Counted from the first letter of the stretch, positions 5,519-63,670 are shown. The stretch: 64,000 nucleotides of DNA from Promethearchaeota archaeon (GCA_048937405.1 JBHLNF010000001.1:912785-976784); one strand, 5' to 3'. The notes: a model not told the origin generated them from the letters alone. Numbers and translations are program-made.

Positions 5519-6267
5519 GACAAGTTCAGCTGGTCAACTATTTTAAAAATAAATCTTCCACAAAAAAGTTCATTTCCATTATTTTATTGTTTTATTCTTC
5601 ACTAAAGGAGGAAATTTATCTCGAATATTTAAATAATTCATTCTTTCTATGTTTTTATGAAAAATTTTCTCTTCCTCTCTACTATTCAATCAAATTATTA
5701 TAGATTTTATTAACTAAAAAGGGTTATGTTATACATTTATATTCATTTCACCTCAAAACCTAGATTATTGATTCTATGAACCTTGTTTATCACAATTTCC
5801 GTGAATGAGTAGTTAAGATAACAACAAAAAATCAATCTGGGAAAGTAAAAGTACCTATTCATGAAGATACTAAATAATTTTTTTCTTGTAAGTTCAAACA
5901 CGGTTTTAAGAACTTTTAAAATTATGATTTTTCCAAGAGGAACTTTTATGATTGAATCATCTTATTCCAAAATAACAATTCCTTCTTAATTATAATCTAG
6001 TTGACGTATTAAAGCTTAATATGCTTTTTCTTTTGATTTAGAATATATCGTTTTGACTAAATATGAAGTTTATGAATTATATCCAATTTTTTAAAATCAG
6101 AATTTATTGATTTCATTAAATATACTAATATACTTAGAGAAAATAATTTGAAAAATCTACCATTTTCAAAAGGGAAATAAAGGATGAATCTTTTGGAAGA
6201 CATCAAGAAAAATCTGGCTTTCTTTTAAACTTTTATTAGTGAAAATGAAAAAACTAATTTTAATAAT

Positions 6268-6500
6268 AATTCATAAATTAAATTCCCTACTTCTGAATAT
6301 ATTTTTTAAATTGTAAATATCAATATAAGGTTTTATAATATCTCAGAAAAATTTTTTTGATTTTCTGAATTAAAAAGATATAGTAGAATATGAATGAATT
6401 CATTGTCATTAAGGGTACTAGAGAAAACAATTTAAGAGATATTGATGTAAAAATACCATGTAATAAACATATGTTTATAATTAGTATTAGTTGGAGTGGT
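6268..6500 (+). repeat. Degenerate direct copy of the uvrA promoter and first ~37 codons (partner 9188-9420)
   Basis: Colinear with 9188-9420 at offset 2920. ATG at 6390 reads MNEFIVIKGTRENNLRDIDVKIPCNKHMFIISISWSG versus UvrA [37 protein letters not shown]. Confidence 0.95.
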
Positions 6501-6556: not shown

Positions 6557-8986
6557 ATGGTAGTTCAAGATATCAAAATGTCTCCTCTTCAAGGGATTCC
6601 ATCTGAGAGGGTTAGAAAAATTAGAGATAAAATGTTGTCCCAACCCTTCGAATATGATCTTGAACGAGCCCGATGCTATTCGAGGATTTGGAAACAGATG
6701 GAAGATGCTCATCCCAGCATGAAAAAAGCCAAAGCTCTGGAGGAATTTTTACGCTGCCTTTCTATAAGGATTGATAGTGATGAGCTTCTTGTAGGAGTAA
6801 AATCCAGCAAAATTAGGGCTGATCCTTTTGAAATTGAACTTGGAAGGCACGTTCGAACTTATGATTTTCTCTTAGATGAATCAATAGATGAAGCAGCTAA
6901 AGATCATTTCCGTAGACGTAATCCTATCATTAGACGTTATGTTCCTCTTACAGAACAAGAGCTTAACGAATTGAAAAATGATATTATCCCCGTTTGGAAA
7001 GGAAAGACATTAGCTGATCGAAAAGAAGAGCTCTGGAAGGAAGCAGGCTTATTTAAGGAGAAAAATAGTTCTATGGAACGAGCTATGAGTTGGATTAACC
7101 CATTTTATGCGGAAATGCAAGGTCATACGATTCCAGGTTATAAACGAGTTCTTAATATAGGATTTAAAGGAATAGAAAAGAGAGCTACTGAAGAACTTAA
7201 AAAACTTAGAGAGACTGATGAGGATTACGAACAACGTAAGACTTTTTATGAAGCAGTTCAGGTTACTTCTCAAGCTGTTTGTGATTATTCCAATCGGTAT
7301 GCAGATCTCGCAATGGAAATGGCTAAAAATGCATCAGAATCAAGAAAGGTAGAACTTTTAGAAATTGCTGGGCGTACAAAACGAGTACCGGCCCTCCCAC
7401 CAAGAACATTCATGGAAGCACTTCAATCGATATGGCTGACGAATGTTGTTATGGAAATGAGTTATGGTGAGAGTAATATCTTTTCTCAAGGAAGAGTTGA
7501 TCAATATCTTTACCCCTATTATGCCACTGATTTAGCAGAGGGACGGATTACTTATGAGGAAGCTTTAGAAGCAATTGAAGAATATTTAGTGAAACTTGCG
7601 TCTGTTGTTATAGCTGGACAGAATAATATCACTATTGGAGGGTTAGATAAAGATGGAAATGATGCTACAAATGATATATCATATATGTTTCTTGAAGCTG
7701 TTGCAAATGTAAAAAGTTTATTGAATACAATATCAATACGGATTTCTTCCAAAACACCTCGGGATTTTGTGAAAAGAACTATTGAAGCTTTTAAATATAC
7801 CGGCGGAATGGGAATTCATAATGATGAAATTTTAGTACCACAGCTTCAAGAAGATGGCTATTCACTAGAACATGCCCGAGATTACTCACTCGTAGGGTGT
7901 GTAGAACCTCATGGTACAGGTTTTGATTTTTCATATACTGCTGGTAATGGTGTTCGATTGTCAATCGTTTTACATATGGCTTTAAATGAAGGACGAATTC
8001 TTATAGCAGGGAATCGTCAATTTGGAGCAAAAACACCTGATCCAAGTACTTTTAAAACGTTCGAAGATGTCAAAAAGGCTTTTGTAGATCAGCTTTCCTT
8101 TGGAGTAGATTTAGTTGTGAAAAAAGCAGAGTTAAAAGATCAGGCCTTTGCAGAAGGTTTTCCCTCCCCATTGCTTTCATCTACAATCGAAGGATGTTTA
8201 GAGAGTGGAAAAGATGTAACTCGAAATGGAGCGCGCTATAATAATAACCCTATTGGCTGCCAAGCATTAGCAACCGTAACCAATTCATTAGCAGCAATTC
8301 GCTGGGCAGTATTTGAAGAAAAATTAGTGACAATGGGAGAATTAGTTACTCATCTTAACAATAATTTCAAGGGAGCAGATAAAATTAGAGAACTTTTAAG
8401 AAATAAGGCTCCAAAATACGGTAATGGTGATGATCGTACAGACGAACTTGCAATATGGGTTGCGAATACCTTATGTGATATTGTGAGAAAATATCCTGCT
8501 AGAGGTGGTGCGGGTATTTATCGTACATATTTTGTATCTTCAGGTCTTAATATTCTTGAGGGTAATATGTTAGGAGCGACTCCCGATGGAAGATTATCTG
8601 GTGAAGCTGTTTCTAATGGCATATCTCCTGCAAACGGAACTGAGAAAAATGGTCTTACTATGACGCTCCGATCAGTAGCTTTAGCAACAAAAGACGCTCT
8701 CCTAACCGGTGGAGCAAGCATGAACATAAGAATCAATCCTAATTTATTAGAATCAGATGAGGGCTTAGATAAATTGACTTCTATTGTAGAAGCTTATTTA
8801 GAGTTAGGGGGAAGAGAACTTCAGATTAATCCTGTAAGTTCAGAAACATTAAGAGACGCACAAGCTCATCCAGAAAAATATTCTGATTTATCAGTTAAGG
8901 TAACTGGTTATTCTGCACGTTTTATAGAAATAGGCAGGAGACTTCAAAATGACATCATCACCCGTACAGTATTTAACGAATTATAA
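6557..8986 (+). CDS. Glycyl radical enzyme (pyruvate formate-lyase-like, single-Cys class); substrate unknown
   Basis: GRVDQYLYPY, Cys loop VGCVEP, ATPDGR..GE, C-terminal Gly loop DAQAHPEKYSDLSVKVTGYSARF. Confidence 0.93.
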   Translation: MVVQDIKMSPLQGIPSERVRKIRDKMLSQPFEYDLERARCYSRIWKQMEDAHPSMKKAKALEEFLRCLSIRIDSDELLVGVKSSKIRADPFEIELGRHVRTYDFLLDESIDEAAKDHFRRRNPIIRRYVPLTEQELNELKNDIIPVWKGKTLADRKEELWKEAGLFKEKNSSMERAMSWINPFYAEMQGHTIPGYKRVLNIGFKGIEKRATEELKKLRETDEDYEQRKTFYEAVQVTSQAVCDYSNRYADLAMEMAKNASESRKVELLEIAGRTKRVPALPPRTFMEALQSIWLTNVVMEMSYGESNIFSQGRVDQYLYPYYATDLAEGRITYEEALEAIEEYLVKLASVVIAGQNNITIGGLDKDGNDATNDISYMFLEAVANVKSLLNTISIRISSKTPRDFVKRTIEAFKYTGGMGIHNDEILVPQLQEDGYSLEHARDYSLVGCVEPHGTGFDFSYTAGNGVRLSIVLHMALNEGRILIAGNRQFGAKTPDPSTFKTFEDVKKAFVDQLSFGVDLVVKKAELKDQAFAEGFPSPLLSSTIEGCLESGKDVTRNGARYNNNPIGCQALATVTNSLAAIRWAVFEEKLVTMGELVTHLNNNFKGADKIRELLRNKAPKYGNGDDRTDELAIWVANTLCDIVRKYPARGGAGIYRTYFVSSGLNILEGNMLGATPDGRLSGEAVSNGISPANGTEKNGLTMTLRSVALATKDALLTGGASMNIRINPNLLESDEGLDKLTSIVEAYLELGGRELQINPVSSETLRDAQAHPEKYSDLSVKVTGYSARFIEIGRRLQNDIITRTVFNEL

Positions 8987-9309
8987 AATTAGCATCACCA
9001 TTATCTTCTTTGTCGTTAGATAATTTGCCCTTAAATTCTGTTCATTTATTCTATTGAGTAATTTTATCAAATTTATCAGTTTTTATTATATAAATTTTCT
9101 ATTTTTATCCTATAAAAATTCTGGATGCTTTTCAATAGAAATTAATTTAATAATATCCTAAATAAGTTTTTTAGGATTAAGATTAAAAATTCATAAATTA
9201 TTTACCCTGCATTTGAATATTATTTTTTAATTGTAAATATTAACAAAAAGTTTTATAATATCTTAGAAAAATTTTTTTGACTTTCTGAATTAAAAAGATA
9301 TAGTAGAAT

Positions 9310-12180
9310 ATGAATGAATTCATTATCATTAAGGGTGCTAGAGAGAATAATTTAAAAGATATTGATGTAAAAATACCACGTAATAAGCTTGTGGTGGTAA
9401 CTGGCATTAGTGGGAGCGGAAAAAGTTCCCTTGCAATGAATACATTATATGCAGAAGGACAGCGAAGATTCTTAGAGTCATTATCAAGTTATGCCAGACA
9501 ATTCTTAGGAGAGATGGATAAACCCGATGTAGATTCAATAGAAGGATTATCTCCCGCAATTGCAATTGAGCAAAAACCACTCTCAAAAAATCCACGAAGT
9601 ATAGTTGGGACAGTTACTGAAATTTATGATTATTATCGATTGCTATATGCAAATATTGGTATCCCTCATTGTCCGAATTGTGGAAAAGAAATAAAACCTC
9701 AAACACCACAGCAAATTATTCAACAGATCCTAGGAACAATAAGTGAAAATCAAAAATTTATTGTTAAATCTCCAGTTATACGAGATAGAAAAGGAGAATA
9801 CAAAGATCTTTTACAAGATTTAAAAAAACAAGGATATGTTAGAGTAGAAATTGATGGGATACAATATACATTAGATGAAGACATTTCTATGGAAAAGAAT
9901 GTTAAACACAACATTAATGTTATTATTGACAGATTAGTAATGCGAAAAGATATTAGAACAAGATTAGCTGATTCGATTGAGACTGCATTAGAACTATCAG
10001 AAGGGTTAGTAATTGTTGAGATTGTTGAAAAAACGGAACAAATTTATTCTGAACATCTTGCTTGTATTGATTGTGGAATTTCATTTCCTCCAATAGACCA
10101 TAAAATGTTTTCCTTTAATATTCCTCATGGAAGTTGTAAATATTGTAGTGGATTAGGTAATGTTATGGAATTTGACTATGGTTTATTATTAGGAAATGAC
10201 TTAGATGTTCCACTACAAGAAACTCCGATTAGAGATATTCCTGGTTTTGGATCTGAAAATGGATATTCCTGGCAAACTATAGTACAAGTTGCTAAACACT
10301 ATGGATTCGATACTAAGTATACTCCAATTAAGGATATTGATCCAAAAAAACTTCATAAAGTTTTGTTTGGAACAGAAAATGAATCAATTGATTTCCATTT
10401 TAAAAGTGATAATAATGAATATAAAAATCACAATGGAGAATTTAAATCTTCTTGGCAAGTGCTAAGGCCATTTGAGGGAATAATTCCAATTCTTCAAAGA
10501 AGATATATGGAAACTCGTTCAGAATGGGCTCGTGATGTCTATGAAAGTTTTATGAAGAGGATAAATTGCCCTCAATGCAAAGGTAAAAGGTTAAAACCTG
10601 AGAGTTTGGCTATAACGATAAAGGATCTTAATATTGCTGATTTATCTAACCTATCTGTAAAGGAATCCTTAAATTTTTTTAATAAATTACAATTAAATGA
10701 GACTGAAAAGATAATAGTTAAAGAAGTATTAAAAGAAATATTAGATAGACTATCTTTTCTTAAAAATGTGGGGTTAGATTACATAACTCTAAACCGTCGT
10801 TCAGATACACTATCTGTAGGGGAAGCTGAAAGGATACGATTAGCAACTCAATTAGGCTCTAGTTTAGTAGGTGTTTTGTATGTATTGGATGAGCCAAGCA
10901 TAGGATTACATCAAAGAGATGTCTCACGCCTCATTAAAATGCTAAAGAAGTTAAGAGATTTAGGAAATACAGTTATAGTAGTTGAACATGATGAGGCAAT
11001 AATGCGTAGTGCTGATCACATCATTGATTTAGGACCATTAGCAGGCGAAAGAGGGGGTGAAGTAGTAGCTGAAGGTCCGATAGAAACAATAATTAATTCA
11101 GATAGTTTAACAGGAGAATATTTATCAGGGAAAAAGAAAATTAATATTCCAAAAGCTAGACGCGAAATTAATAAAGATATAATTGAAATAATAGGAGCAA
11201 AAGAAAATAATTTAAAAGATATTAATGTAAAAATTCCTTTAGGTATATTTTCCTGTATTACTGGAGTTTCTGGGGCAGGGAAAACAAGTCTTATTATCGA
11301 TTGTCTATATAAAGGGCTTCATAATATAATAAACACTCGAAGTTCTAAACTAAATCCAGGAGAATTTGATAAAATTATAGGATACGAAAAAATAGATAAA
11401 ATTATAAATATTGACCAATCTCCCATAGGAAGAACTCCAAGATCTGTACCTGCTACTTATACAAAAGCATTAGATTACATTAGAGAAATCTTTGCTGGTT
11501 TGCCAGAATCTAGAGAACGAGGTTATAAGAAGGGAAGATTTAGTTTCAATACAAAAGATGGACATTGTAAAAAGTGTAAGGGTACAGGTTACATCTTGAA
11601 AGAAATGTATTTCCTCCCTGATGTGTATATCAAATGCGATTTATGCAAGGGTAAAAGATATAATGCTGAAACATTAGATATAAAATATCGCGAAAAATCG
11701 ATCTTTGATGTATTAAAAATGACTTTTCATCAAGCATTAGAATTCTTTGATAGTTTTCCAAATTTAAAGAGAACAATAAAAACTGTAGTAGATGTTGGAT
11801 TAGGGTATTTAGAATTAGGTCAATCCTCAACAACGCTTAGTGGTGGAGAATCACAAAGGTTGAAAATAGCGAGGGAGTTAAGAAAAACTAGTACTGGTAA
11901 TACATTATTTATTTTAGATGAACCTACAACAGGTCTCAGTTCGTTTGATATTAATTATTTATTAAGAGTTCTTCAAAAATTAGTAGATAAAGGTAATACT
12001 GTAATTATTATTGAACATAATATGGATATTGTAAAATCTGTCGATTATATTATTGATCTTGGTCCTGAAGGTGGTGAAAAAGGAGGTCATATTGTAGCTC
12101 AAGGTACTCCTGAAGCAATAATTACAAATAATAAATCCTATACTGCTCAATATCTTAAACCATATCTCAACTCCAAATAA
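9310..12180 (+). CDS. uvrA: Excinuclease ABC subunit A
   Basis: Two ABC ATPase domains (GISGSGKS, GVSGAGKT), AEGQRRFLESLSSYARQF, Zn-finger CxxC pairs, LDEPSIGLH, LSGGESQR, LDEPTTGL. Confidence 0.98.
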   Translation: MNEFIIIKGARENNLKDIDVKIPRNKLVVVTGISGSGKSSLAMNTLYAEGQRRFLESLSSYARQFLGEMDKPDVDSIEGLSPAIAIEQKPLSKNPRSIVGTVTEIYDYYRLLYANIGIPHCPNCGKEIKPQTPQQIIQQILGTISENQKFIVKSPVIRDRKGEYKDLLQDLKKQGYVRVEIDGIQYTLDEDISMEKNVKHNINVIIDRLVMRKDIRTRLADSIETALELSEGLVIVEIVEKTEQIYSEHLACIDCGISFPPIDHKMFSFNIPHGSCKYCSGLGNVMEFDYGLLLGNDLDVPLQETPIRDIPGFGSENGYSWQTIVQVAKHYGFDTKYTPIKDIDPKKLHKVLFGTENESIDFHFKSDNNEYKNHNGEFKSSWQVLRPFEGIIPILQRRYMETRSEWARDVYESFMKRINCPQCKGKRLKPESLAITIKDLNIADLSNLSVKESLNFFNKLQLNETEKIIVKEVLKEILDRLSFLKNVGLDYITLNRRSDTLSVGEAERIRLATQLGSSLVGVLYVLDEPSIGLHQRDVSRLIKMLKKLRDLGNTVIVVEHDEAIMRSADHIIDLGPLAGERGGEVVAEGPIETIINSDSLTGEYLSGKKKINIPKARREINKDIIEIIGAKENNLKDINVKIPLGIFSCITGVSGAGKTSLIIDCLYKGLHNIINTRSSKLNPGEFDKIIGYEKIDKIINIDQSPIGRTPRSVPATYTKALDYIREIFAGLPESRERGYKKGRFSFNTKDGHCKKCKGTGYILKEMYFLPDVYIKCDLCKGKRYNAETLDIKYREKSIFDVLKMTFHQALEFFDSFPNLKRTIKTVVDVGLGYLELGQSSTTLSGGESQRLKIARELRKTSTGNTLFILDEPTTGLSSFDINYLLRVLQKLVDKGNTVIIIEHNMDIVKSVDYIIDLGPEGGEKGGHIVAQGTPEAIITNNKSYTAQYLKPYLNSK

Positions 12181-12235
12181 TTAAATACAAATCCTAAAAA
12201 TTTTTTTAAAGCTTTAAACAAAATTCTAAACCTAT
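11981..12235 (+). repeat. 255-bp direct repeat, copy 1 (uvrA 3' end plus downstream 55 bp); partner 16325-16579
   Basis: Ungapped alignment at offset 4344. Confidence 0.95.
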
Positions 12236-12305
12236 AATAGATTTATTTATAATGCAAGTATTGTTAAACTATTTTAAATATAAAATCTGAAAATCGTGGT
12301 AAAAA

Positions 12306-12533
12306 ATGACAGATGAAATGAATAAGATAATTAGAGCACCTATAGTGTGTATTCTTGGTCACATTGACCATGGAAAAACTACTATATTAGATTATATCAG
12401 AGGTACTGTTGTCCAACCAAGAGAAGCAGCAGAGATTACGCAACATATTGGTGCATCATAATTTCCAATAGATGACATAAAGGAATTTTTAAGAAAATCA
12501 AAACAAGAATTTGCTGAAAAAGAAATAAAACTT
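12306..12533 (+). pseudogene. infB: infB (aIF5B) 5' fragment, 76 codons with in-frame TAA at 12459
   Basis: Reads [75 protein letters not shown] and aligns to 18242-18466. Confidence 0.95.
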
Positions 12534-12685
12534 GCACCCTTAATGATAATGAATTCATTCATATTCTACTATATCTTTTTAATTCAGAAAGTCAAAAAAA
12601 TTTTTCTACGATAGGATTAAACCTTATATTGTTATTTACAAATAAAAAATAATATAAAGAACCAGAATTTTTAATTTATGAATTA
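12534..12685 (-). repeat. Inverted copy of the uvrA promoter and first ~10 codons
   Basis: 12534-12608 is the exact reverse complement of 9264-9338 (75 bp); degenerate similarity continues to ~12685. Confidence 0.95.
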
Positions 12686-13180
12686 TTTTCATTAAAATCG
12701 ATTCTTTTCTTCTTTATCCATAAATTCTTGAAGGAAAAATACAACTTTCTTAATATCTTCTAAAAGATTTTGAGCTCGCTCAAAAAAACTCATTTATACA
12801 ATACTAAATTAATCAGGATCAAGGTTAATATATTTAAAGAAGCCTTTAAAATTATTCAAGGTCGATGGATAATTGAGATTTATGATAAGGAAAAAATTTA
12901 CTAAACTCCAAACTATTGAAAAATCTACTCACGAATTCATTGCTCAAAAACCTGATGATCCTAAACATGCTAAAATATTCTTAAAAAGCATCTTAAATTT
13001 TATATGTTAATTTTTATTGATTTAAGCTGTAACGATGATTCTATATTAGAAGAAAATTAAGATTTAAAAACTTTTATTGAAGACGGTATTATTGAATCAA
13101 AAGGCGATGATTATTTGATCCCCTATGTTCAGAGTTCGTCATATCTAATCCCTTATGTTTTTTTAAGTGAAAACATATCC

Positions 13181-13990
13181 TTAACGTAAAAAACCATGAA
13201 TATTTTCAGAATAATTTAAGAAATTCTTTAAAGTTATTTCAGGATGGTGATAACGAGACCTTCCTTTTGTAGTTTTACCATATTGAATGGCTTCTTGTGG
13301 ACACCAATTCAAGCAGGCCATACATTGTTGACACTTATGATGCCATTGAGGTTTATCATTAATAATCTTTATATTTTGTACAGGACAAACTTTCTCACAA
13401 ATACCACAGTTATTACAGTTCTCTTTAACCCAAAACTTACGATCCATTTTTGGTATTTTTCGATAATTACCTTCTTGTAAAAGGTTCATAATTTTAATGT
13501 TAGCGCTTGAAATTTTTATATTTTTATGATTTTCTATAGTTTTACTAATCTCATTTACTTTTTGTTTTGCATTCTTAAATCTTTCTTTTTGATCTTCTTT
13601 TGATGATGGTTCATAAAGAGGTATATAATTACCAGGCATTAAGATAGCAAAACTTGCATTTAAACATTTTCCTTTTTCTTTAAGAACGTTGTTAATTATG
13701 TCAAACGTAGCTCCTAAGATTCTATGGTAAGTAGCGACAGTATATAGATAATCAATCTGTGTTAGATCAAGTATTTTTATAAAATCAGCTACAACAGGAG
13801 GAAGAGCATGAAAATATACAGGAAAGATGATTCCAGCAGTTTCAATTGGATATTTGATTTTTCCGTTAATTACATTTGGAATTGAGCAAATTAACGTATT
13901 CTTTAATCTCTGAGCAAGTTCTATACTTATTCTCAAAGAATTTCCAGTGCCTGAAAAATAAAAAATCCTATTATTTACCGAGATAGTCAA
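13181..13990 (-). CDS. EFR1-type flavodoxin-fold/ferredoxin fusion protein
   Basis: YFSGTGNS, FPVY, MPGNY, two 4Fe-4S motifs (CNNCGICEKVCP, CQQCMACLNWCP), GRSRYHHP. Confidence 0.9.
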   Translation of the reverse strand: MTISVNNRIFYFSGTGNSLRISIELAQRLKNTLICSIPNVINGKIKYPIETAGIIFPVYFHALPPVVADFIKILDLTQIDYLYTVATYHRILGATFDIINNVLKEKGKCLNASFAILMPGNYIPLYEPSSKEDQKERFKNAKQKVNEISKTIENHKNIKISSANIKIMNLLQEGNYRKIPKMDRKFWVKENCNNCGICEKVCPVQNIKIINDKPQWHHKCQQCMACLNWCPQEAIQYGKTTKGRSRYHHPEITLKNFLNYSENIHGFLR

Positions 13991-14117
13991 TCAATTTCAC
14001 TCTCGTTTATTATTATATTAAAGTTAATATTGAGAATATTTCGTAATTCATATTCCATTTTATTTAAAAGCATACGAATATCAAGCCTGTTTATAAGTTT
14101 AATATCTTAATAAGGCT

Positions 14118-14690
14118 CTAATTTATTTTATTAAAGATAAAGGCATTAAACATGGGATTTTTTTTAATTTGTATTGATAAATGAAAATTTCTTGCGTAAT
14201 CTATAGGATCTACAGCCTCTGGGTGTGTTGGAAATTTCTTTCTTGCTATTTTAATTCTTTTACGAGTAGGTTCGAATATGCAAATAACACCGTTTGGTTT
14301 TATTGTGCGAACACATTCTTTAAACGCTGAAGCACTATCATCCATGTGATGGAGAGCTCCCATAACGAAAATTGCGTCAAATGATTCATCTTCAAAAGGC
14401 ATTTCTTCGGCATTAAATGGCTTAAAAGTTATTAAATGATCAACATTAAAGCTTTTGGCATTTTCTAGCCAATTTTGTTTAGCGTGCTCTGAATTATCAT
14501 TTTCAGGTTCTCCAGTAAGTACTTTAAAATTATTTAAAGCCAATGTAATTGCCATTCTACCTTTTCCCGTCCCTACATCCAAAATTTTTGCGTTCTTATC
14601 TAATTTTAAATCTTGAACGACGGGATTGATAATATCAAAAATAGAACTAAATTCATTCTCTAAAACATCTTTCATTTGTTCTTTTTCCAT
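14118..14690 (-). CDS. Class I SAM-dependent methyltransferase
   Basis: ILDVGTGKG, AEEMPFEDESFD, ALHH, KPNG. Confidence 0.9.
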   Translation of the reverse strand: MEKEQMKDVLENEFSSIFDIINPVVQDLKLDKNAKILDVGTGKGRMAITLALNNFKVLTGEPENDNSEHAKQNWLENAKSFNVDHLITFKPFNAEEMPFEDESFDAIFVMGALHHMDDSASAFKECVRTIKPNGVICIFEPTRKRIKIARKKFPTHPEAVDPIDYARNFHLSIQIKKNPMFNAFIFNKIN

Positions 14691-14724
14691 TTTTTTCTAC
14701 TTTTTACTTTTCTTTTTCTTCTTT

Positions 14725-14858
14725 ATTTTTTTAAATTTTTATTTAAATTTTTTTAGTTCGATCTCTGATAGTACGAGATCTGATTATAATACATTAAACT
14801 TAATATTTAAAGATTTTGAATCACCTAAACTCGAACTATCTGGAAATAATTATCAATT
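14725..14858 (-). repeat. 134-bp inverted repeat, left arm (upstream region of the methyltransferase)
   Basis: Reverse complement of 15505-15638 with 2 mismatches. Confidence 0.95.
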
Positions 14859-14892
14859 CAGATTAAAGATTTAGATTAAAAAATAGCTTAAT

Positions 14893-15366
14893 TTATAAAG
14901 AATCTAAATTATCAAGCAATTTTTTAATTAATATGGATAATTGCTCGATTTCTTCAGGTTTAAAGTCCTTACAACAATTTATCATTAATCTTTCATTTGC
15001 AGGTATTGATTTACAAAGATTCATACCTTTATCTGTCAATTTAACGAATAGACTTCTCCTATCTTCTGGATTTGCTTTACGAATAACTAATCCTTTTTTT
15101 TCCATCGTATCAACAACTGATGTAATGGTTGATCTGGAAGAATAACAAATTTCTGCCAAATTTTTAAATTGAAGTTTACCATGTTTTTCTAGTTGTTCTA
15201 AAATAAAATATTGAGGAATAGTTAATCTAAATTTTCGAACTATTGGTCTTTGTAATTGGTAGAATTTTTTAGCAACTATATCAATTGATTTAAAAATCTC
15301 CTCAATTTTACTTGAGTTAACATTAATATTAGAACTACTAGAATAATGGTTTGAATTTTCATTCAT
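14893..15366 (-). CDS. MarR family transcriptional regulator
   Basis: LTIPQYFIL...STITSVVDTMEKKGLV.R...DRRSLFVKLT.KG. Confidence 0.92.
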   Translation of the reverse strand: MNENSNHYSSSSNINVNSSKIEEIFKSIDIVAKKFYQLQRPIVRKFRLTIPQYFILEQLEKHGKLQFKNLAEICYSSRSTITSVVDTMEKKGLVIRKANPEDRRSLFVKLTDKGMNLCKSIPANERLMINCCKDFKPEEIEQLSILIKKLLDNLDSL

Positions 15367-15504
15367 AGGTTATCAATGTAATAATTTTACTTTTAATTAA
15401 TTGTATTCTAATTATCTTATATGGTTTTTATTCTTATTATTTTTCTCTTATAATGAAGAAATTGATTCGAATTTATATACGCACTTATTAAAATTTATCA
15501 ATTT

Positions 15505-15638
15505 AATTGATAATTATTTCTGGATAGTTCGAGTTTAGGTGATTCAAAATCTTTAAATATTAAGTTTAATGTATTATAATCAGATCTCGTACTATCAGAG
15601 ATCGAACTAAAAAAATTTAAATAAAAATTTAAAAAAAT
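15505..15638 (+). repeat. 134-bp inverted repeat, right arm (upstream region of the C-GCAxxG-C-C gene), with candidate MarR operator half-sites
   Basis: Partner 14725-14858. Contains TAGTTCG, CGTACTA and CGAACTA half-sites and a GATCTC-9 nt-GAGATC palindrome. Confidence 0.95.
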
Positions 15639-15659
15639 CAACAAGTACAAGTGTATTAA

Positions 15660-16091
15660 ATGTCAAAAGTAGAACAAGCTGTTTCATGCTTTATGAAAGG
15701 ATTTTCATGTGGGCAAGCAATTCTTTCTACCTATGCAACAGAATTTGGATTAGAACGAGAACTAGCTATAAAGGCGGGTACTGGTTTTGGAGCAGGGATG
15801 GGTAGATTAGGTAAAACTTGCGGAGCAGTGACTAGCGCAATTCTAGTTCTCAGTTTAAAGTATGGAAGCAATAAAATAGATGAAAAAGCAAAAAATGAAA
15901 CATATGGCCAAGTTAAAAGATTCATAAAAAGTTTTATATCTGTTAATGGTTCAATTATTTGTAACGAATTGCTTGATTGCGATATTACCACTTCTGAAGG
16001 TATGAAGAAAGCAATTGATAATAATTTATTTAAAACTATTTGTCCTAATTTCGTGAGATCATCATCTGAAATCCTTGAACAAGTCTTATAA
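15660..16091 (+). CDS. C-GCAxxG-C-C family putative redox-active protein
   Basis: GFSCGQA, GFGAGMG..TCGAV, GSIICNELL, C-terminal ICPNFV. Confidence 0.9.
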   Translation: MSKVEQAVSCFMKGFSCGQAILSTYATEFGLERELAIKAGTGFGAGMGRLGKTCGAVTSAILVLSLKYGSNKIDEKAKNETYGQVKRFIKSFISVNGSIICNELLDCDITTSEGMKKAIDNNLFKTICPNFVRSSSEILEQVL

Positions 16092-16324
16092 GAATATAAT
16101 AGTCTGTTTCACATTAAGAAATTTTGGTTAATTTTATAAATGAAAGATAAATTAACTGAAATTCATAAAACTGTTTTTATTTTACTTAAATAATATTTAC
16201 TTTTTAAATAAATAATTGATTGTCATTTTGGTTTCGAATCCCTCAAACTCGTGATAACTAAAAGAAATTAATTCGTGTTATACTTTATGTCCTCAATATT
16301 CTTTTTACAGTTTCTAATGTTTGG

Positions 16325-16579
16325 TAGTAGATAAAGGTAATACTGTAATTGTTATTGAACATAATATGGATGTTGTAAAATCTATCGATTATATTATTGA
16401 TCATGGTCCTGAAGGTGGTGAAAAAGGAGGTCATGTTGTAGCTCAAGGTACTCCTAAAGCAATAATTACAAACAATAAATCCTATACTGCTCAATATCTT
16501 AAACCGTATCTCAACACCAAATGATTAAATACTATTCCTAAAAATTTTCTTAAGGCTTTAAACAAAATTCTAAACCTAT
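16325..16579 (+). pseudogene. uvrA: uvrA 3' fragment plus downstream sequence (copy 2 of the 255-bp direct repeat)
   Basis: [35 protein letters not shown]...YLKPYLNTK*; about 10 substitutions over the ~200 coding bp versus 11981-12180. Confidence 0.95.
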
Positions 16580-16685
16580 GGTAATTTAATTTTGGTTAAT
16601 ATTTCTCAAAATTAGAAGTCCTTCTATATTTTTAACACATAAATACGATATAAATATATGAAATTATTATTCAAATAATTTAATC

Positions 16686-18116
16686 ATGTCAAATAGAAAA
16701 AATATATATTGTACTATGGAAAAAAATTTTGAAAATAATAAGAAATGCAAAATAAACAGCATTACAAGATATAAAATTCAGTATGATAAATTAAAGACTA
16801 ATAATACTTTACAATTCATTGAAGATTTACTTATTGAGCTTCAAAAAAATCCTGAATTATTAGCAGATATCTTTCCAGAACGAGTAAAAAAATTTACGGA
16901 TAGAGCACTCTCTCGATTTTGGAATCGTCATGAAAGGTTTATTGATAAGTTGAAATTAAAAATAAAAAAATTCAACTCTGATAATAGTTTCACTTTTAAA
17001 GATCTAAATTATCTTAAAAATAAATATATCAATGATTTTAATGATAAAGCTCATGATTGTATGAGAATGATTAATAGTTATCAAAATAATGAAATAAATA
17101 CTCTTGAGTTTATTGAGCAATTTAAAATTGAATTAGGAAAAATTTCAGGCAAAATTGAAATATCTAAACAAGAATTGAGTATTTTATTTGGACATTACCC
17201 TGGATTTATATCAGAGATTATGTCAAAAATTAAAAAATCACATATTCAAAAGAGTTATCCTAATTATAAATTTTCTTTAGAAAATTTAAAAGATTTGGAG
17301 GAGAATCTCATCGAAATATCACATCCTTCTTTAAACAGATTTTTAAAACTAATCAATAAGTATAGAAGTCTTAATTCTAATTTAAAAGAATATTCAAAGC
17401 AACAATATACAATAAAAAATCCAAATTTATTTTCAGAAATCATTTTGTTATCTACTGCTTATTGGTATGGATTTCTTTGTGCTGATGGTTGGATTAGTAA
17501 AATTTGTGAAAATAAATATAGAATTGGATTTAAACTTGCTAAAAAAGATCGAGACCGAATTAATTCATTTGCTGATTATGTAGGTTTTAAACGAAACCGA
17601 ATAAGAGAAGTCTATCAATTTAGGAAGAATAATGAAGGTGAGATTAAATTATATGAAAGTCTTAGTATTGAATTTTGTTGTAAACCTATGTATAAAGATC
17701 TAATAGAACATGGTTTCGATGATTTTAAATCCAATAGAGAAGGTGTTCCAAAATTTGTGAAAAAAGCTATCAAACAAGCAAAAGAAGAAGTATTTAGTAC
17801 TAATCTTCATTGGTCTCAATCATTTGAGGGCAAAATAGCTTTTGCTTGGCTTCTTGGTTTTTATGATGGTGATGGTCGATATCGAGGAGGTTATTGTGCT
17901 GAACTATATTCTTCTAATAAAAAATTATTAGAAGAAATCAAGGAATTTTTTGAATGTCCAAATGAAGTAAGATTTTTAAGGGAACCAGGTGAAATCAAAT
18001 TAATTTTTAATAAAGAAACAATTTGTGAAGGTTATTATATTTTAACAACTGGTTCTGAGATATTTAAGTGTATGTTATTAAGTTATAGTAATAGTATGCA
18101 ACGAAAACGACCCTAA
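16686..18116 (+). CDS. Free-standing double-motif LAGLIDADG homing-endonuclease-like protein with ~250-aa N-terminal extension
   Basis: AYWYGFLCADGWI (~17457) and AWLLGFYDGDG (~17844), both keeping the acidic catalytic position; SSNKKLLEEIK follows motif 2; no intein splice termini. Confidence 0.85.
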   Translation: MSNRKNIYCTMEKNFENNKKCKINSITRYKIQYDKLKTNNTLQFIEDLLIELQKNPELLADIFPERVKKFTDRALSRFWNRHERFIDKLKLKIKKFNSDNSFTFKDLNYLKNKYINDFNDKAHDCMRMINSYQNNEINTLEFIEQFKIELGKISGKIEISKQELSILFGHYPGFISEIMSKIKKSHIQKSYPNYKFSLENLKDLEENLIEISHPSLNRFLKLINKYRSLNSNLKEYSKQQYTIKNPNLFSEIILLSTAYWYGFLCADGWISKICENKYRIGFKLAKKDRDRINSFADYVGFKRNRIREVYQFRKNNEGEIKLYESLSIEFCCKPMYKDLIEHGFDDFKSNREGVPKFVKKAIKQAKEEVFSTNLHWSQSFEGKIAFAWLLGFYDGDGRYRGGYCAELYSSNKKLLEEIKEFFECPNEVRFLREPGEIKLIFNKETICEGYYILTTGSEIFKCMLLSYSNSMQRKRP

Positions 18117-18241
18117 CTTTTAACTTTTATATATTCCATTAACTTTTATTACAATAACATTGTTAAAATCAAAATACTTTTATTATTAGTGCAATATTAG
18201 TTTTAATTTTATAATAATTAACAAAAAAGTTTTGTGATAAA

Positions 18242-20044
18242 TTGATTGAACAAAAAAAAGTAATTAGAGCACCAATAGTATGTATTTTAGGACATATAGA
18301 TCATGGTAAGACTACAATATTAGATTATATCAGAGGGACAGTTGTCCAGCAACGAGAAGCTGCAGGAATTACTCAACATATTGGTGCATCTTATTTTCCA
18401 ACAGAAGATATCAAAGAATTTCTAAGAAAATCTAAACAAGAATTTGCTGATAAAGAAATTAAACTTCCAGGAATATTGGTTGTTGATACACCTGGACATG
18501 CTGCATTTCTAAATCTCCGAAGACGAGGTGGTGCTGTTGCTGATATAGCGATTCTTGTTATAGATATAACTGCGGGTACTATGCCAATTACTTGGGAATC
18601 TGTACGGATTTTAAGAGAAAGAAAAACACCTTTTGTTATTGCTGCCAATAAAATAGATAGATTATCTGGATGGAAATCAAAAAAGGATGCTGATTTTCTC
18701 GATTCCTATAATTCTCAAAAACCACACGTAAAAGATTTCTTAGATGAGAAAATTCTAGGTATTGTTGGTAATTTCTTAGAGGAGGGATTTAAGGGTATAG
18801 ATCGCTATGATAAAATAAAAGATTTTACAAAGAAAATAGCGATTGTACCAACAAGTGGTAAAACTGGAGAGGGTATCTCAACACTTTTAATGATTTTAAT
18901 GGGATTGGTTCAACAATATCTAACAATAAATCTTCAATTTTCAGAAGGATCAGCTAAAGGCGTAGTATTAGAAGTTAAAAAAGAGAAAGGTCAAGGAAAA
19001 ACAATGGATGTTCTTATTTATGATGGTATTATTAATAAAGGAGATGAATTTATTGTTGGAGGATTAGAAAAACCGATTAAATCTAAAGTAAGAGCTTTAT
19101 TAACTCCAAAACCTCTGGATGAAATTCGGGATCCAAGACAAAAATTTGATTCTGTTGATTTTATTAGTGCAGCAGCCGGTATTAAAATCCTCTCTCCAAA
19201 TATAGATGACGTCGTGGCAGGTTCCCCATTTAGAGGTATTAAAGATCCTTCTGAAGAAGAAACTATATATAAAGAAATTGAATCAGAAGTTGAAAGTATT
19301 AGGATAAAAACTGATAAAGCAGGGGTAGTTTTAAAAGCAGATACTTTAGGTTCATTAGAGGCATTGGAAAATCATTTTACAAAAAATGGAGTGAAAATAA
19401 GTATTGCGGACGTAGGACCAATTAAAAAAGAAGATGTTATAAATGCAAATATAGTTAAACAATTAGATCCTTATTCTGCTACAGTCTTAGGATTTAATGT
19501 ACAAATATTACCTGAAGCTAATGAACAATCTATTAAAGATAATATTCGAATTTTTACAAATAATGTTATTTATCGTTTATTAGAAGAATACATCGAGTAT
19601 GCAGAGATAAGAAAAGCAAAAGATACTGCTAAAGGTTTAAGTGAGCTTGTATTACCTGCTAAAATTAAAATGTTTCCTGAATTCATATTTCGAAATTCAG
19701 ATCCTGCGGTTTTTGGGGTATCTGTTGAAGCTGGGACTTTATATCCAAAAGTACAATTAATTACTGATAAAGGTAAACGTGTTAGAAGGATTCATCAAAT
19801 TCAAGATAAAGGACAAACACTCGAAAAAGCTCCTAAGGATTCAGAAGTGGCTATTTCTATTCGAGGTATTGAAATAGGTCGAGATCTTGAAAAAGATGAA
19901 ACTTTATATGTTTACATCCCAGAATCTCATGTTCGGCAACTTATGGGAAAATTTATTGATGAATTAACTACAGATCAAAAACAAGCTTTGAGAGAATTTG
20001 TCATTTTAATGCGTAAGGTAAATCACCCATGGTGGGGGATGTAA
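18242..20044 (+). CDS. infB: Translation initiation factor aIF5B/IF-2
   Basis: [55 protein letters not shown]; TTG start. Confidence 0.98.
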   Translation: MIEQKKVIRAPIVCILGHIDHGKTTILDYIRGTVVQQREAAGITQHIGASYFPTEDIKEFLRKSKQEFADKEIKLPGILVVDTPGHAAFLNLRRRGGAVADIAILVIDITAGTMPITWESVRILRERKTPFVIAANKIDRLSGWKSKKDADFLDSYNSQKPHVKDFLDEKILGIVGNFLEEGFKGIDRYDKIKDFTKKIAIVPTSGKTGEGISTLLMILMGLVQQYLTINLQFSEGSAKGVVLEVKKEKGQGKTMDVLIYDGIINKGDEFIVGGLEKPIKSKVRALLTPKPLDEIRDPRQKFDSVDFISAAAGIKILSPNIDDVVAGSPFRGIKDPSEEETIYKEIESEVESIRIKTDKAGVVLKADTLGSLEALENHFTKNGVKISIADVGPIKKEDVINANIVKQLDPYSATVLGFNVQILPEANEQSIKDNIRIFTNNVIYRLLEEYIEYAEIRKAKDTAKGLSELVLPAKIKMFPEFIFRNSDPAVFGVSVEAGTLYPKVQLITDKGKRVRRIHQIQDKGQTLEKAPKDSEVAISIRGIEIGRDLEKDETLYVYIPESHVRQLMGKFIDELTTDQKQALREFVILMRKVNHPWWGM

Positions 20045-34240: not shown

Positions 34241-34900
34241 ATGGAAGTTATTGAGAGAAATTATAAAATACTAGAGAATAAAATGATTGAACAGATGCAT
34301 AGTTCTTTTAGTGATGGAAAATCATTAATTGATTCAGAATTAGATACAGGAGTTTTTAATGCTGTAGTGAAACCAATTGTAAAATCTTTTTATAAATATT
34401 GGACCGATAAAGATGCTCGTATAGGTATACTCGAACAAATTAAGGTAACTTTAGATTCTGCTAAAGAAATATTAACAAATGGAGATGGATCAAAAGAGCA
34501 ATTCGAAATGGTTATTAATAAGAATTTTCCAATTTATTTAAAAAATGACCAAACAGATAGGCAATGTAAAAAAAATCATAAGAATTATATAAAATTGAGA
34601 GAAATAACTAAAAATAGTTTTATAACACAGGTTAAAGAAAGTATCTTATTTTTAAAGGTTGATGATGATATTAAAGATTATGCTGAATTATCAAGAGCAA
34701 CCTTTAAAACTAAAGTAAGAGCATACGAAGCTTTAAAACGACAATTGGATTATAATGAAGAGGGAATCTCAATTGTGGAGAAAGATGATTCAATATTAAA
34801 GGTTCCAGTTGGAAAAAACATAATTCTAAAAGTTCTTAGAAAAGGATTTGAAGTAACAAAGCAAAAACTAATCAAAGAGCTTGATGAAATTTTTAATTAA
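34241..34900 (+). CDS. Hypothetical protein, paralogue of the upstream gene
   Basis: Full-length similarity to 33521-34183. Confidence 0.8.
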   Translation: MEVIERNYKILENKMIEQMHSSFSDGKSLIDSELDTGVFNAVVKPIVKSFYKYWTDKDARIGILEQIKVTLDSAKEILTNGDGSKEQFEMVINKNFPIYLKNDQTDRQCKKNHKNYIKLREITKNSFITQVKESILFLKVDDDIKDYAELSRATFKTKVRAYEALKRQLDYNEEGISIVEKDDSILKVPVGKNIILKVLRKGFEVTKQKLIKELDEIFN

Positions 34901-62479: not shown

Positions 62480-63670
62480 ATGAAGTTAACTGAGATCATT
62501 CAGGTAATGAAATCAAAGGAACTGTCTAAGCTGTGTCACTTGGCTAAAAATTTATACAATTTATCTAATTGGTATTATAGACAAGCCTTATTCAATTTGG
62601 GTAATTTTCTCAGTTATTACGATCTGGATTTCATGTTAAAACATCATGAATGCTATAAAACCTTGCCAGCTCAAACATCTCAACAAGTATTAAAGTTGGT
62701 CATCAAGAATTGGAAATCTTACTTTAGAGCCAAGAGAGAATGGAACATGAACAAGTTCAAGTTTAAACGTGTTCCAAAGATACCAAGATATAAGAGAAAA
62801 GATGGAGAGTCCATTGTCATTTTCACGAATCAGAATGCAAGAATAAAAGATGATGGATGCCTTCATTTTCCTAAGAAATGTGATTTAAAACCTGTTAAGA
62901 CTCGCATTACACAATTTCAACAGGTTAGAATAATACCATTTGGGGATAGATATAAAATCGAAATAATATACGAGAGAGAAGCAAAAGATTTAGGTTTGAA
63001 TAAGGATGCTGTCGTAAGCATTGATTTGGGTTTGAACAATCTCATATCTGCTGTAAATAATAAAGGTTTGAATCCTTTTATTGTTAAAGGTGGGAATGTC
63101 AAATCTGTAAATCATTACTACAATAAGCAATTAGCACGTTATAGAAGCATTGAAAGGAAGAAGGGTAATCTTATAGATACGAAAAGAATTAGGAGATTAC
63201 ATCTGAAGAGAAATAACAAAATTATCGATCACTTCCACAAAATCTCTAAGAAGGTGATTACCTATTGCAAAGAAAATGATATAGGGACGATAGTAATTGG
63301 ATATAACGAAGGATGGAAGCAGAAATGCAATATAGGGAAATTAAATAATCAAAAATTTGTTCAAATTCCTTTTACTACATTATTTCAACAGATTGCATAT
63401 AAGGGAAAGCTGATTGGTATTGATGTAGTGTTAATAGATGAAAGTTATACGAGTAAATGCTCTTTTTTAGACGGAGAAGAGATCAAGAACCATTCCACTT
63501 ATGTAGGGAAGAGAGTTAAAAGAGGATTATTCAAATCTCAGGATGGAACGATTATTAATGCCGATGTGAATGCAGGATATAACATCATGAAGAAAGCATT
63601 CCCAAATTCTATAACTGAAGATGGGATACAGGGTTTGGTGTTAAACCCACAAGTTGTCAAGATTTCTTGA
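62480..63670 (+). CDS. tnpB: RNA-guided nuclease TnpB
   Basis: AKNLYN, LPAQTSQQ, SIDLGLNN, DHFHK.S, ESYTSKCS, INADVNAGYNI. Confidence 0.93.
   Translation: MKLTEIIQVMKSKELSKLCHLAKNLYNLSNWYYRQALFNLGNFLSYYDLDFMLKHHECYKTLPAQTSQQVLKLVIKNWKSYFRAKREWNMNKFKFKRVPKIPRYKRKDGESIVIFTNQNARIKDDGCLHFPKKCDLKPVKTRITQFQQVRIIPFGDRYKIEIIYEREAKDLGLNKDAVVSIDLGLNNLISAVNNKGLNPFIVKGGNVKSVNHYYNKQLARYRSIERKKGNLIDTKRIRRLHLKRNNKIIDHFHKISKKVITYCKENDIGTIVIGYNEGWKQKCNIGKLNNQKFVQIPFTTLFQQIAYKGKLIGIDVVLIDESYTSKCSFLDGEEIKNHSTYVGKRVKRGLFKSQDGTIINADVNAGYNIMKKAFPNSITEDGIQGLVLNPQVVKIS

Follow-up and report, generated by a model that had tools for sequence, protein, structure and literature searches.

The 64,000-nucleotide stretch of DNA analysed here (the window; GCA_048937405.1, JBHLNF010000001.1:912785-976784) comes from a Promethearchaeota archaeon and includes an intact uvrA gene, an intact infB gene that encodes the translation GTPase aIF5B (18242-20044, with a TTG start codon) and, between the two, a free-standing gene for a predicted LAGLIDADG homing endonuclease (Table 1). 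The subject of this analysis is that nuclease gene and the foreign infB 5' end with which it appears to travel. The window is part of a 1.05-Mb contig from a metagenome-type assembly of 4.47 Mb, which comprises 29 contigs and has 5.7% contamination. The relatives used for comparison are metagenome-assembled genomes labelled Promethearchaeota or Promethearchaeia, i.e. Lokiarchaeota-type Asgard archaea, and regions upstream of infB were compared in 49 congeners at first and then in 80 species representatives. There are only three members of the nuclease-carrier set used throughout: this genome, G008 (isolate H3B.172), which keeps a decayed remnant of the gene, and L063, a contig from a sediment relative (ENA ERZ940452, run SRR1555744) that came up in a protein search with the nuclease and holds an intact gene. 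The closest nuclease-free relative is G036 (isolate LW60_5).

The junction between the uvrA 3' end and the infB 5' end is present twice, as a first-pass annotation of the window had reported, and both repeats were found again by sequence comparison. The uvrA 3' repeat pairs 11981-12248 with 16325-16592 (268 nucleotides, 93% identity), and the infB 5' repeat pairs 12314-12536 with 18247-18469 (223 nucleotides, 83% identity). A recount gave exactly the 23 synonymous and 6 non-synonymous or stop differences that had been claimed over 68 infB codons (12330-12533), as well as the synonymous differences at 8 of the 10 P-loop codons. Among the six is a TAA codon at 12459 (codon 51), which together with unique changes at otherwise invariant residues (Q37P and G42E) characterizes the upstream infB copy as a dead fragment. 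The downstream uvrA 3' duplicate differs in 10 codons, with 7 non-synonymous and 3 synonymous changes when the stop is counted. It looks like the product of plain decay, as had been supposed, of a copy of the genome's own gene, being nearest to the first copy in this genome (93%) and at most 84% identical to other species. Two of the distances originally given hold only in part. The 70 bp assigned to the spacer of the first junction corresponds to the first 68 nucleotides that the repeat covers, whereas the full spacer measures 125 nucleotides, and the separation of 4.3 kb is true of the uvrA copies but not of the infB copies, which are 5.9 kb apart.

The G036 locus aligns without interruption to 9169-12536 at 91% identity, and thus the dead infB fragment is the native allele in its native context. 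This colinearity, together with the grouping of the fragment in the trees described below, bears out the proposal that a displaced native allele was left upstream as a pseudogene. The fragment is G036-like along all 228 of its nucleotides, on both sides of the breakpoint found at codon 50 of the intact gene. Inverted local sequence follows it directly, with little microhomology, if any, at the joint, and beyond that lies foreign DNA. The inverted sequence, which is absent from the first-pass annotation, is a copy of the uvrA leader that abuts the fragment and includes the first 32 nucleotides of uvrA, and its proximal 77 nucleotides are identical to 9265-9341. Among 54 genomes of the genus, only this one has a second infB match.

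The intact infB gene is a mosaic. When sites at which G036 and G008 differ were scored, the gene proved to be G008-like over 18242-18391 and G036-like thereafter, with 28 of 29 sites on the left and 13 of 72 on the right resembling G008. A second scoring frame gave 19 of 20 on the left versus 15 of 72 on the right, and placed the best breakpoint at 18391/18394 (chi-square 37). The three nuclease-linked alleles share 91-95% identity among themselves over infB nucleotides 19-150 and 81-87% with all others, the mean for the genus being 83.6%. In a maximum-likelihood tree of the same nucleotides, these alleles form a clade with an ultrafast bootstrap (UFBoot) of 98, the dead fragment groups with G036, G068 and G001 (UFBoot 96), and a grouping of the intact copy with G036 is rejected by the approximately unbiased (AU) test (p=0.0035). 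Over nucleotides 151-588, the intact copy joins G036 (UFBoot 99) and its grouping with G008 is rejected (AU p=2.7e-6). The phylogenetic breakpoint within infB that the first-pass annotation had suggested looking for is therefore present, with trees and AU tests in agreement.

The edges of the foreign block recur in a second genomic background. G008 has its own breakpoint, relative to the native-like relative G065, at 18380-18400, and on the left both the second junction copy and G008 diverge from the native spacer after AAACCTAT, such that both cassette borders coincide in this genome and in G008. The noncoding motif AAAATTCTAAACCTAT, located some 55-70 nucleotides past the uvrA stop codon (12218-12248), is conserved in the spacers of congeners and marks the left edge of the cassette here and in G008. 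The cassette has sequence in common with L063 beginning at 16776 and with G008 beginning at 17967. The synonymous divergence (dS) that separates this genome from L063 rises from 0.21 in the nuclease gene to 0.31 in infB codons 1-50 and to 0.87 in codons 51-210.

The linked infB 5' type is absent from the nuclease-free genomes among the 80 species, the best of which reaches 87.9% identity compared with 94.7% for G008. Thus the co-occurrence of codon type and nuclease, another proposed test, is positive across about 80 species. The breakpoint at 18391/18394, the clade of linked alleles and the confinement of the linked type to carriers all indicate that the nuclease travels with a foreign infB 5' end, as had been suspected. 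The nuclease-linked alleles begin with TTG and encode MIEQKKV (this genome, 18242) or MIEKNNV (G008), whereas nuclease-free alleles, like the fragment at 12306, begin with ATG and encode MTE. By these sequence comparisons, an infB flank has been co-inherited with the nuclease gene, which is the co-conversion tract expected of intronless homing.

Empty sites are common. The uvrA and infB genes are adjacent nearly everywhere, with spacers of 86-130 nucleotides in 32 of the first 40 congeners, and most of the species representatives (about 77 of 80) have a spacer of roughly 130 nucleotides that lacks the nuclease. G008 alone among the compared genomes keeps a nuclease remnant, which comprises the last 50 codons (88% amino acid identity), occupies the same place and lies together with the downstream leader in a 1.8-kb spacer. 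Other enlarged uvrA-infB spacers were considered as nuclease-related and rejected, as their inserts are unrelated. An insert family of about 650-780 nucleotides, whose members are 82-90% alike, is found in the spacers of G073, G002, G013 and G069 (L047, L048, L057 and L060), inserts of this type are also found in G024, G062 and G066, and G034 (L056) carries a 372-amino-acid open reading frame (ORF) there. With unrelated inserts in at least eight congeners, the spacer appears to be a general insertion hotspot. The neighbouring uvrA gene has also been damaged repeatedly at this locus, since it is truncated to residues 693-955 in G023 (L031, CP070805.1) and lacks an internal stretch (about 769-903) in G033 (L046).

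The nuclease ORF (16686-18116) contains the motifs YWYGFLCADGW and LLGFYDGDG, with acidic residues D267 and D394 that are nearly invariant across 11 family members. Its match to Pfam LAGLIDADG_3 only just reaches the gathering cut-off (22.5 bits versus 22.5). An AlphaFold2 model with a predicted local distance difference test score (pLDDT) of 81 consists of a helical N-terminal part (about residues 40-230) and a duplicated alpha/beta nuclease domain (about 255-466) that has the duplicated alpha-beta-beta-alpha-beta-beta-alpha fold. Foldseek returned 85 PDB matches at E<=0.001, and the best 50 of these 85 are all LAGLIDADG enzymes. The best matches include bI3 maturase, I-AniI, I-SceI, I-DmoI, I-OnuI, PI-PfuI and PI-SceI, with intron-encoded enzymes at the top. 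Judged by motifs and model, the ORF encodes an intact monomeric two-motif LAGLIDADG homing endonuclease of predicted activity. The gene is intact both here and in L063, and the catalytic motifs are kept in these two diverged orthologs. The ratio of non-synonymous to synonymous substitution rates (dN/dS) for the nuclease domain is 0.33.

The description of this nuclease as free-standing withstood scrutiny, because the gene is intergenic, has its own start and stop codons, does not continue the reading frame of a host gene and is associated with neither a Hint domain nor intron RNA. There is no Hint or Intein_splicing Pfam match in the ORF, which ends 125 nucleotides upstream of infB, and no Rfam intron was found in 11900-18700. 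The nuclease family is patchily distributed, being present in 15 of 53 congeneric species, and exhibits variable N- and C-terminal extensions and no conservation of neighbouring genes. Its alignment is too diverse to serve as a scan profile, and a scan of genome contigs with the nuclease as query gave no match. There are three more free-standing LAGLIDADG paralogs in this genome (G000 C28:467298-468599, C7:997791-998594 and C20:3037-3906), with 32-38% identity and an in-frame TAA codon in one of them. Large open frames around some paralogs were considered as inteins, and this was ruled out for every paralog. No duplicated host-gene ends are found around the three paralogs of this genome, and the paralogs in relatives adjoin unrelated genes. 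Thus, the duplicated layout is specific to the infB-linked nuclease lineage.

This layout recurs in another organism. The order in L063 is an infB 5' fragment, 6.7 kb of different cargo, a nuclease ortholog (79% amino acid identity) and an intact infB gene. The L063 fragment stays open until about codon 97, beyond which it diverges, and it differs from the intact gene of the same contig by 29 synonymous and 15 non-synonymous codons. Its cargo consists of degraded IS607-like pieces, two unknown genes and a DUF4238 gene, and has nothing in common with the cargo of this genome. A strain variant, L075, is 98% identical to L063 over part of the DUF4238 gene, the intervening sequence and the 5' half of the nuclease gene, while further to the left its cargo differs again and includes Schlafen/AlbA_2 and PD-Lambda-3_A matches that look defence-related. 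The recurrence in L063, together with the sole second infB match in the genus, argues that the duplicate is tied to the nuclease cassette and is neither a chance occurrence nor a feature of the assembly. Elsewhere in the window, a segment of about 98 amino acids (63386-63661), which is repeated in at least eight other places in this genome, matches a TnpB-like C-terminal fragment at L063:1658-1966.

Table 1. Features of the uvrA-infB region in the window (coordinates counted from its first nucleotide).
Feature	Coordinates	Strand	Remarks
Intact uvrA, native	9310-12180	+	Pfam UvrA domains; colinear with nuclease-free G036
Repeat copy B1: last 200 nt of uvrA and first 68 nt of spacer	11981-12248	+	
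Native right part of uvrA-infB spacer, nuclease-free type, lost from copy 2	12249-12305	+	Aligns with spacers of G036, G068, G001
Dead native infB 5' fragment, codons 1-76	12306-12536	+	Groups with G036/G068/G001, UFBoot 96
Inverted copy of uvrA leader and uvrA codons 1-10, joined directly to infB fragment	12531-12769	-	
Cargo, 3.6 kb, four genes	12770-16324	no strand	
Flavodoxin/4Fe-4S protein (cargo)	13181-13990	-	
S-adenosylmethionine (SAM) methyltransferase (cargo)	14118-14690	-	
MarR (cargo)	14893-15366	-	Between 170-nt inverted repeats
C_GCAxxG_C_C protein (cargo)	15660-16091	+	
Repeat copy B2: decaying uvrA 3' fragment and 68 nt of spacer	16325-16592	+	
Putative mobile cassette: upstream region, nuclease gene, own infB leader, infB codons 1-50	16593-18391	+	Would have replaced native 12249-12458
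Free-standing two-motif LAGLIDADG homing-endonuclease gene (predicted activity), 476 aa	16686-18116	+	
Cassette-borne infB upstream region, 125 nt, unrelated to native spacer	18117-18241	+	
Nuclease-linked infB 5' end: TTG start, codons 1-50, P-loop 18287-18316, switch I	18242-18391	+	
Native remainder of infB (aIF5B), G036-like	18392-20044	+	UFBoot 99 with G036; Pfam domains

The 3.6-kb cargo is not found beside uvrA or infB in the five close relatives that were compared. Its MarR gene is enclosed by inverted repeats located at 14703-14872 and 15491-15660 (91% identity). Upstream of uvrA, a glycyl-radical enzyme gene (PFL-like and Gly_radical domains, in 6557-8986) is bracketed by 236-nucleotide direct repeats (6264-6499 and 9184-9419, 86% identity) that comprise the uvrA leader and the first 37 or so codons. 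G036 has the same upstream copy, and therefore the event that created this bracketing is older than the nuclease cassette. A pair of 166-nucleotide inverted repeats (5875-6040 and 34705-34870, 78% identity) is separated by 28.7 kb.

The first-pass annotation proposed that the nuclease cuts the infB P-loop, the linked allele having been recoded there. This proposal does not hold up well, because differences at 8 or more of the 10 codons occur in 64 of 820 pairs of functional alleles in the genus and are thus ordinary, and the L063 fragment and intact gene differ at just 2 P-loop positions. On these grounds the P-loop as a specially recoded target was rejected as unproven. There is a 26-mer (18347-18372) that is identical in all three carriers and includes two nearly carrier-specific bases, 18349G and 18353C. 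It serves only as a lead, since the nearest nuclease-free alleles are a single nucleotide away from it. An enrichment of fragment-unique mutations in this 26-mer (2 of 4) was too weak to use. At the level of sequence, the linked block must contain a putative immunity determinant, and the coincidence of its right edge in two backgrounds points indirectly to the stretch just left of 18391.

The same annotation stated that inteins of this gene insert at the P-loop, and such inteins were indeed found between GHVDHGK and C in seven metagenomic proteins. The suggestion that the nuclease itself is of intein type fared less well. The endonucleases of aIF5B inteins are similar to it at the family level only (hhalign 94%, 18% identity), and the top Foldseek matches, as described above, are intron-encoded enzymes. 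No intein is present in infB of 52 congeners, where the protein is about 600 amino acids in every case.

We consider it fairly probable that a nuclease cassette of about 1.8 kb replaced the native infB start by homologous recombination, most likely through intronless homing with co-conversion, in an event that was duplicative here. The cassette (16593-18391) would have replaced the right part of the native spacer and infB codons 1-50. The most likely trigger would be cleavage of nuclease-free alleles by the nuclease somewhere in a stretch of 210 nucleotides (12249-12458), with the linked infB 5' end representing a cut-resistant version. The nuclease and the linked end would then stay together because the latter would resist cleavage. 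In both this genome and the independent sediment relative, the event would have been duplicative, with the native uvrA-spacer-infB(1-76) segment kept upstream here as a pseudogene. Foreign cargo, plus the inverted uvrA-leader filler in this genome, would have accumulated between the pseudogene and the cassette. The origin that we favour for the duplicate is aberrant repair of a nuclease-made break. Perhaps one end was extended on a homologous copy and was joined via template switches, such that filler and cargo were captured. This reading connects the observed anatomy, recombination breakpoints, linkage and recurrent layout with a nuclease activity, a target position and a double-strand break as the cause of the duplication, all three of which we infer.

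Several points weigh against this interpretation. Classical homing replaces the recipient allele rather than retaining it, and therefore an extra duplicative step is needed. The infB fragments end beyond the codon-50 breakpoint, at codon 76 here and at about codon 97 in L063, so a simple break-and-join at the cut site fails to account for them. Although conservation among carriers extends to both the P-loop 27-mer and the 26-mer, neither stretch sets the carriers cleanly apart from nuclease-free alleles, and the displaced fragment of L063 is nuclease-free-like in both. By sequence, the candidate target is not narrowable within infB nucleotides 1-150 or the spacer. In addition, the whole-gene dN/dS of 0.58 means that constraint on the nuclease is weak, and only three nuclease carriers are known.

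Other routes to the same layout therefore have to be weighed. One possibility is that an integrase-free circular DNA, on which the nuclease gene and cargo accompanied a look-alike of the infB 5' end, entered in Campbell style by a single crossover at the chromosomal infB gene. The homology would thereby be duplicated and the gene restored by the element's 5' end, with the nuclease at most stimulating the crossover or guarding the junction. Such an origin would account for the direct repeats of a target-gene end that flank variable cargo in two organisms, and recombination between B1 and B2 would yield the exact layout of G008. The glycyl-radical enzyme cargo is bracketed alike, by uvrA 5' repeats, and the crossover adjoins a 17-nucleotide stretch identical in both copies (18375-18391). 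This identity may represent an attachment-site (att) core or may simply reflect the coding of the conserved switch I. The single-crossover model was set aside because, although it can account for the layout, it predicts element sequence to the right of the codon-50 crossover, where the fragment is in fact native-like (G036-like). The uvrA 3' copy and the inverted leader piece are also left unexplained, and a Pfam search of ORFs found no recombinase in 12537-18241. We regard this route as rather unlikely. The native-like character of the fragment over its full length would instead suit an older segmental duplication of the uvrA 3' and infB 5' ends, with cargo at the joint, followed by later homing of the cassette in front of the working infB gene. 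The uvrA 3' copies are nearest to each other, as expected for duplication within a genome. However, a second infB fragment is found in none of about 50 nuclease-free congeners, whereas both carriers of an intact nuclease gene with enough flanking sequence have one, and such a coincidence is improbable. We judge this order of events to be distinctly unlikely. We rate both Campbell-type insertion and a pre-existing duplication below aberrant repair.

Two further explanations would leave the nuclease without a role. The cassette might have arrived by ordinary horizontal transfer through homologous recombination at a hotspot, with the nuclease as passive or dead cargo, in keeping with the unrelated inserts found in this spacer in at least eight congeners and with the weak constraint on the gene. 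Ordinary transfer would not predict that both cassette borders coincide in two genomic backgrounds, that the linkage between nuclease and infB 5' type is strict or that catalytic motifs stay intact in two diverged orthologs, and we find it less likely still than an earlier duplication. Lastly, a metagenome-type assembly with measurable contamination could join a nuclease-carrying strain to a nuclease-free strain. Such a chimera is very improbable, because the fragment is a pseudogene with a stop codon and unique changes at invariant residues rather than the working allele of a strain, the uvrA copy has decayed in the manner described above and the contig spans 1.05 Mb. Furthermore, L063 shows a matching layout in another organism, and on an independent Logan contig the B2 variant is joined to the nuclease gene and to the linked infB start, all at 100% identity. 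Exact-protein look-ups with uvrA and with one cargo protein yielded no independent contigs.

The nearest precedent for the favoured reading is the intronless homing of T-even phages, which involves the free-standing nucleases SegF, SegG, SegE and MobE (Belle et al. 2002, cited in PMC13565253 and PMC2988022). There, as in this genome, the nuclease gene is flanked by two conserved genes and is part of neither an intron nor an intein, the corresponding sites of relatives are empty, a flank of the neighbouring gene is co-converted and self is distinguished from non-self by substitutions only in that gene. Unlike the phage systems, the present example is located in a cellular archaeal chromosome and involves a predicted nuclease of the LAGLIDADG rather than the GIY-YIG or HNH type. 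An essential gene would receive its leader, start codon and first 50 codons from the cassette, and the displaced allele and cargo are retained. The aIF5B (IF-2) inteins share the host gene, the same 5' region and a LAGLIDADG_3-type nuclease, but the gene described here lies outside the infB reading frame, lacks Hint and splicing domains and encodes a nuclease domain related to theirs at the family level only.

Integrative islands are known that replace the ends of their target genes, such as the 3' ends of tRNA genes or, for the dusA islands, the 5' end. The locus resembles these islands in that an element-borne end would restore the gene, while the displaced fragment lies at the far end with variable cargo between. 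It differs in that no integrase is present here and L063 holds only degraded IS607-like pieces, in that its repeats match at 83-93% identity and have no clear exact att core in common, and in the extra fragments of the upstream gene in this genome. Haloferax glycosylation islands include free-standing LAGLIDADG genes, and island transfer by nuclease-started gene conversion has been proposed for them (PMC5867893). That system likewise places such a gene beside a variable island in an archaeal chromosome, although its Pfam family is LAGLIDADG_2 and PMC5867893 describes neither a co-conversion tract nor a target gene or displaced allele. A precedent for duplications caused by a homing endonuclease is SegB, which drives segmental amplification in phage T6 (PMC13096335). 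In both cases the duplication is local, and those of SegB include its own gene and neighbouring DNA. The T6 events are tandem amplifications in a phage under selection, whereas there is a single partial duplicate with foreign cargo here.

To our knowledge, intronless homing has been documented almost only in phages. The locus described here exhibits a sequence signature of this process in an Asgard archaeal chromosome and at an essential translation GTPase, combining empty sites and a decayed remnant with a sharp co-conversion tract and strict linkage. What would be new is an archaeal chromosomal case with a measured co-conversion tract in an essential gene, the replacement of its leader and start, a retained displaced allele and variable cargo. 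It also yields a putative LAGLIDADG enzyme whose target can be predicted to lie in a window of about 210 bp. The island to which this nuclease is linked accretes cargo without an integrase, with metabolic genes here and defence-like genes in the sediment relatives. As a tentative and rather doubtful extension, the homing nuclease may permit an integrase-free island to insert inside an essential coding sequence without splicing. The element would replace both promoter and 5' end with its own, the original 5' end would remain as the left homology arm, and the island with its cargo would home as a unit between Asgard archaeal genomes. More generally, the arrangement suggests that homing nucleases can carry pieces of core informational genes between archaeal species, with consequences for Asgard archaeal phylogenies built on marker genes, given the mosaic infB found here.

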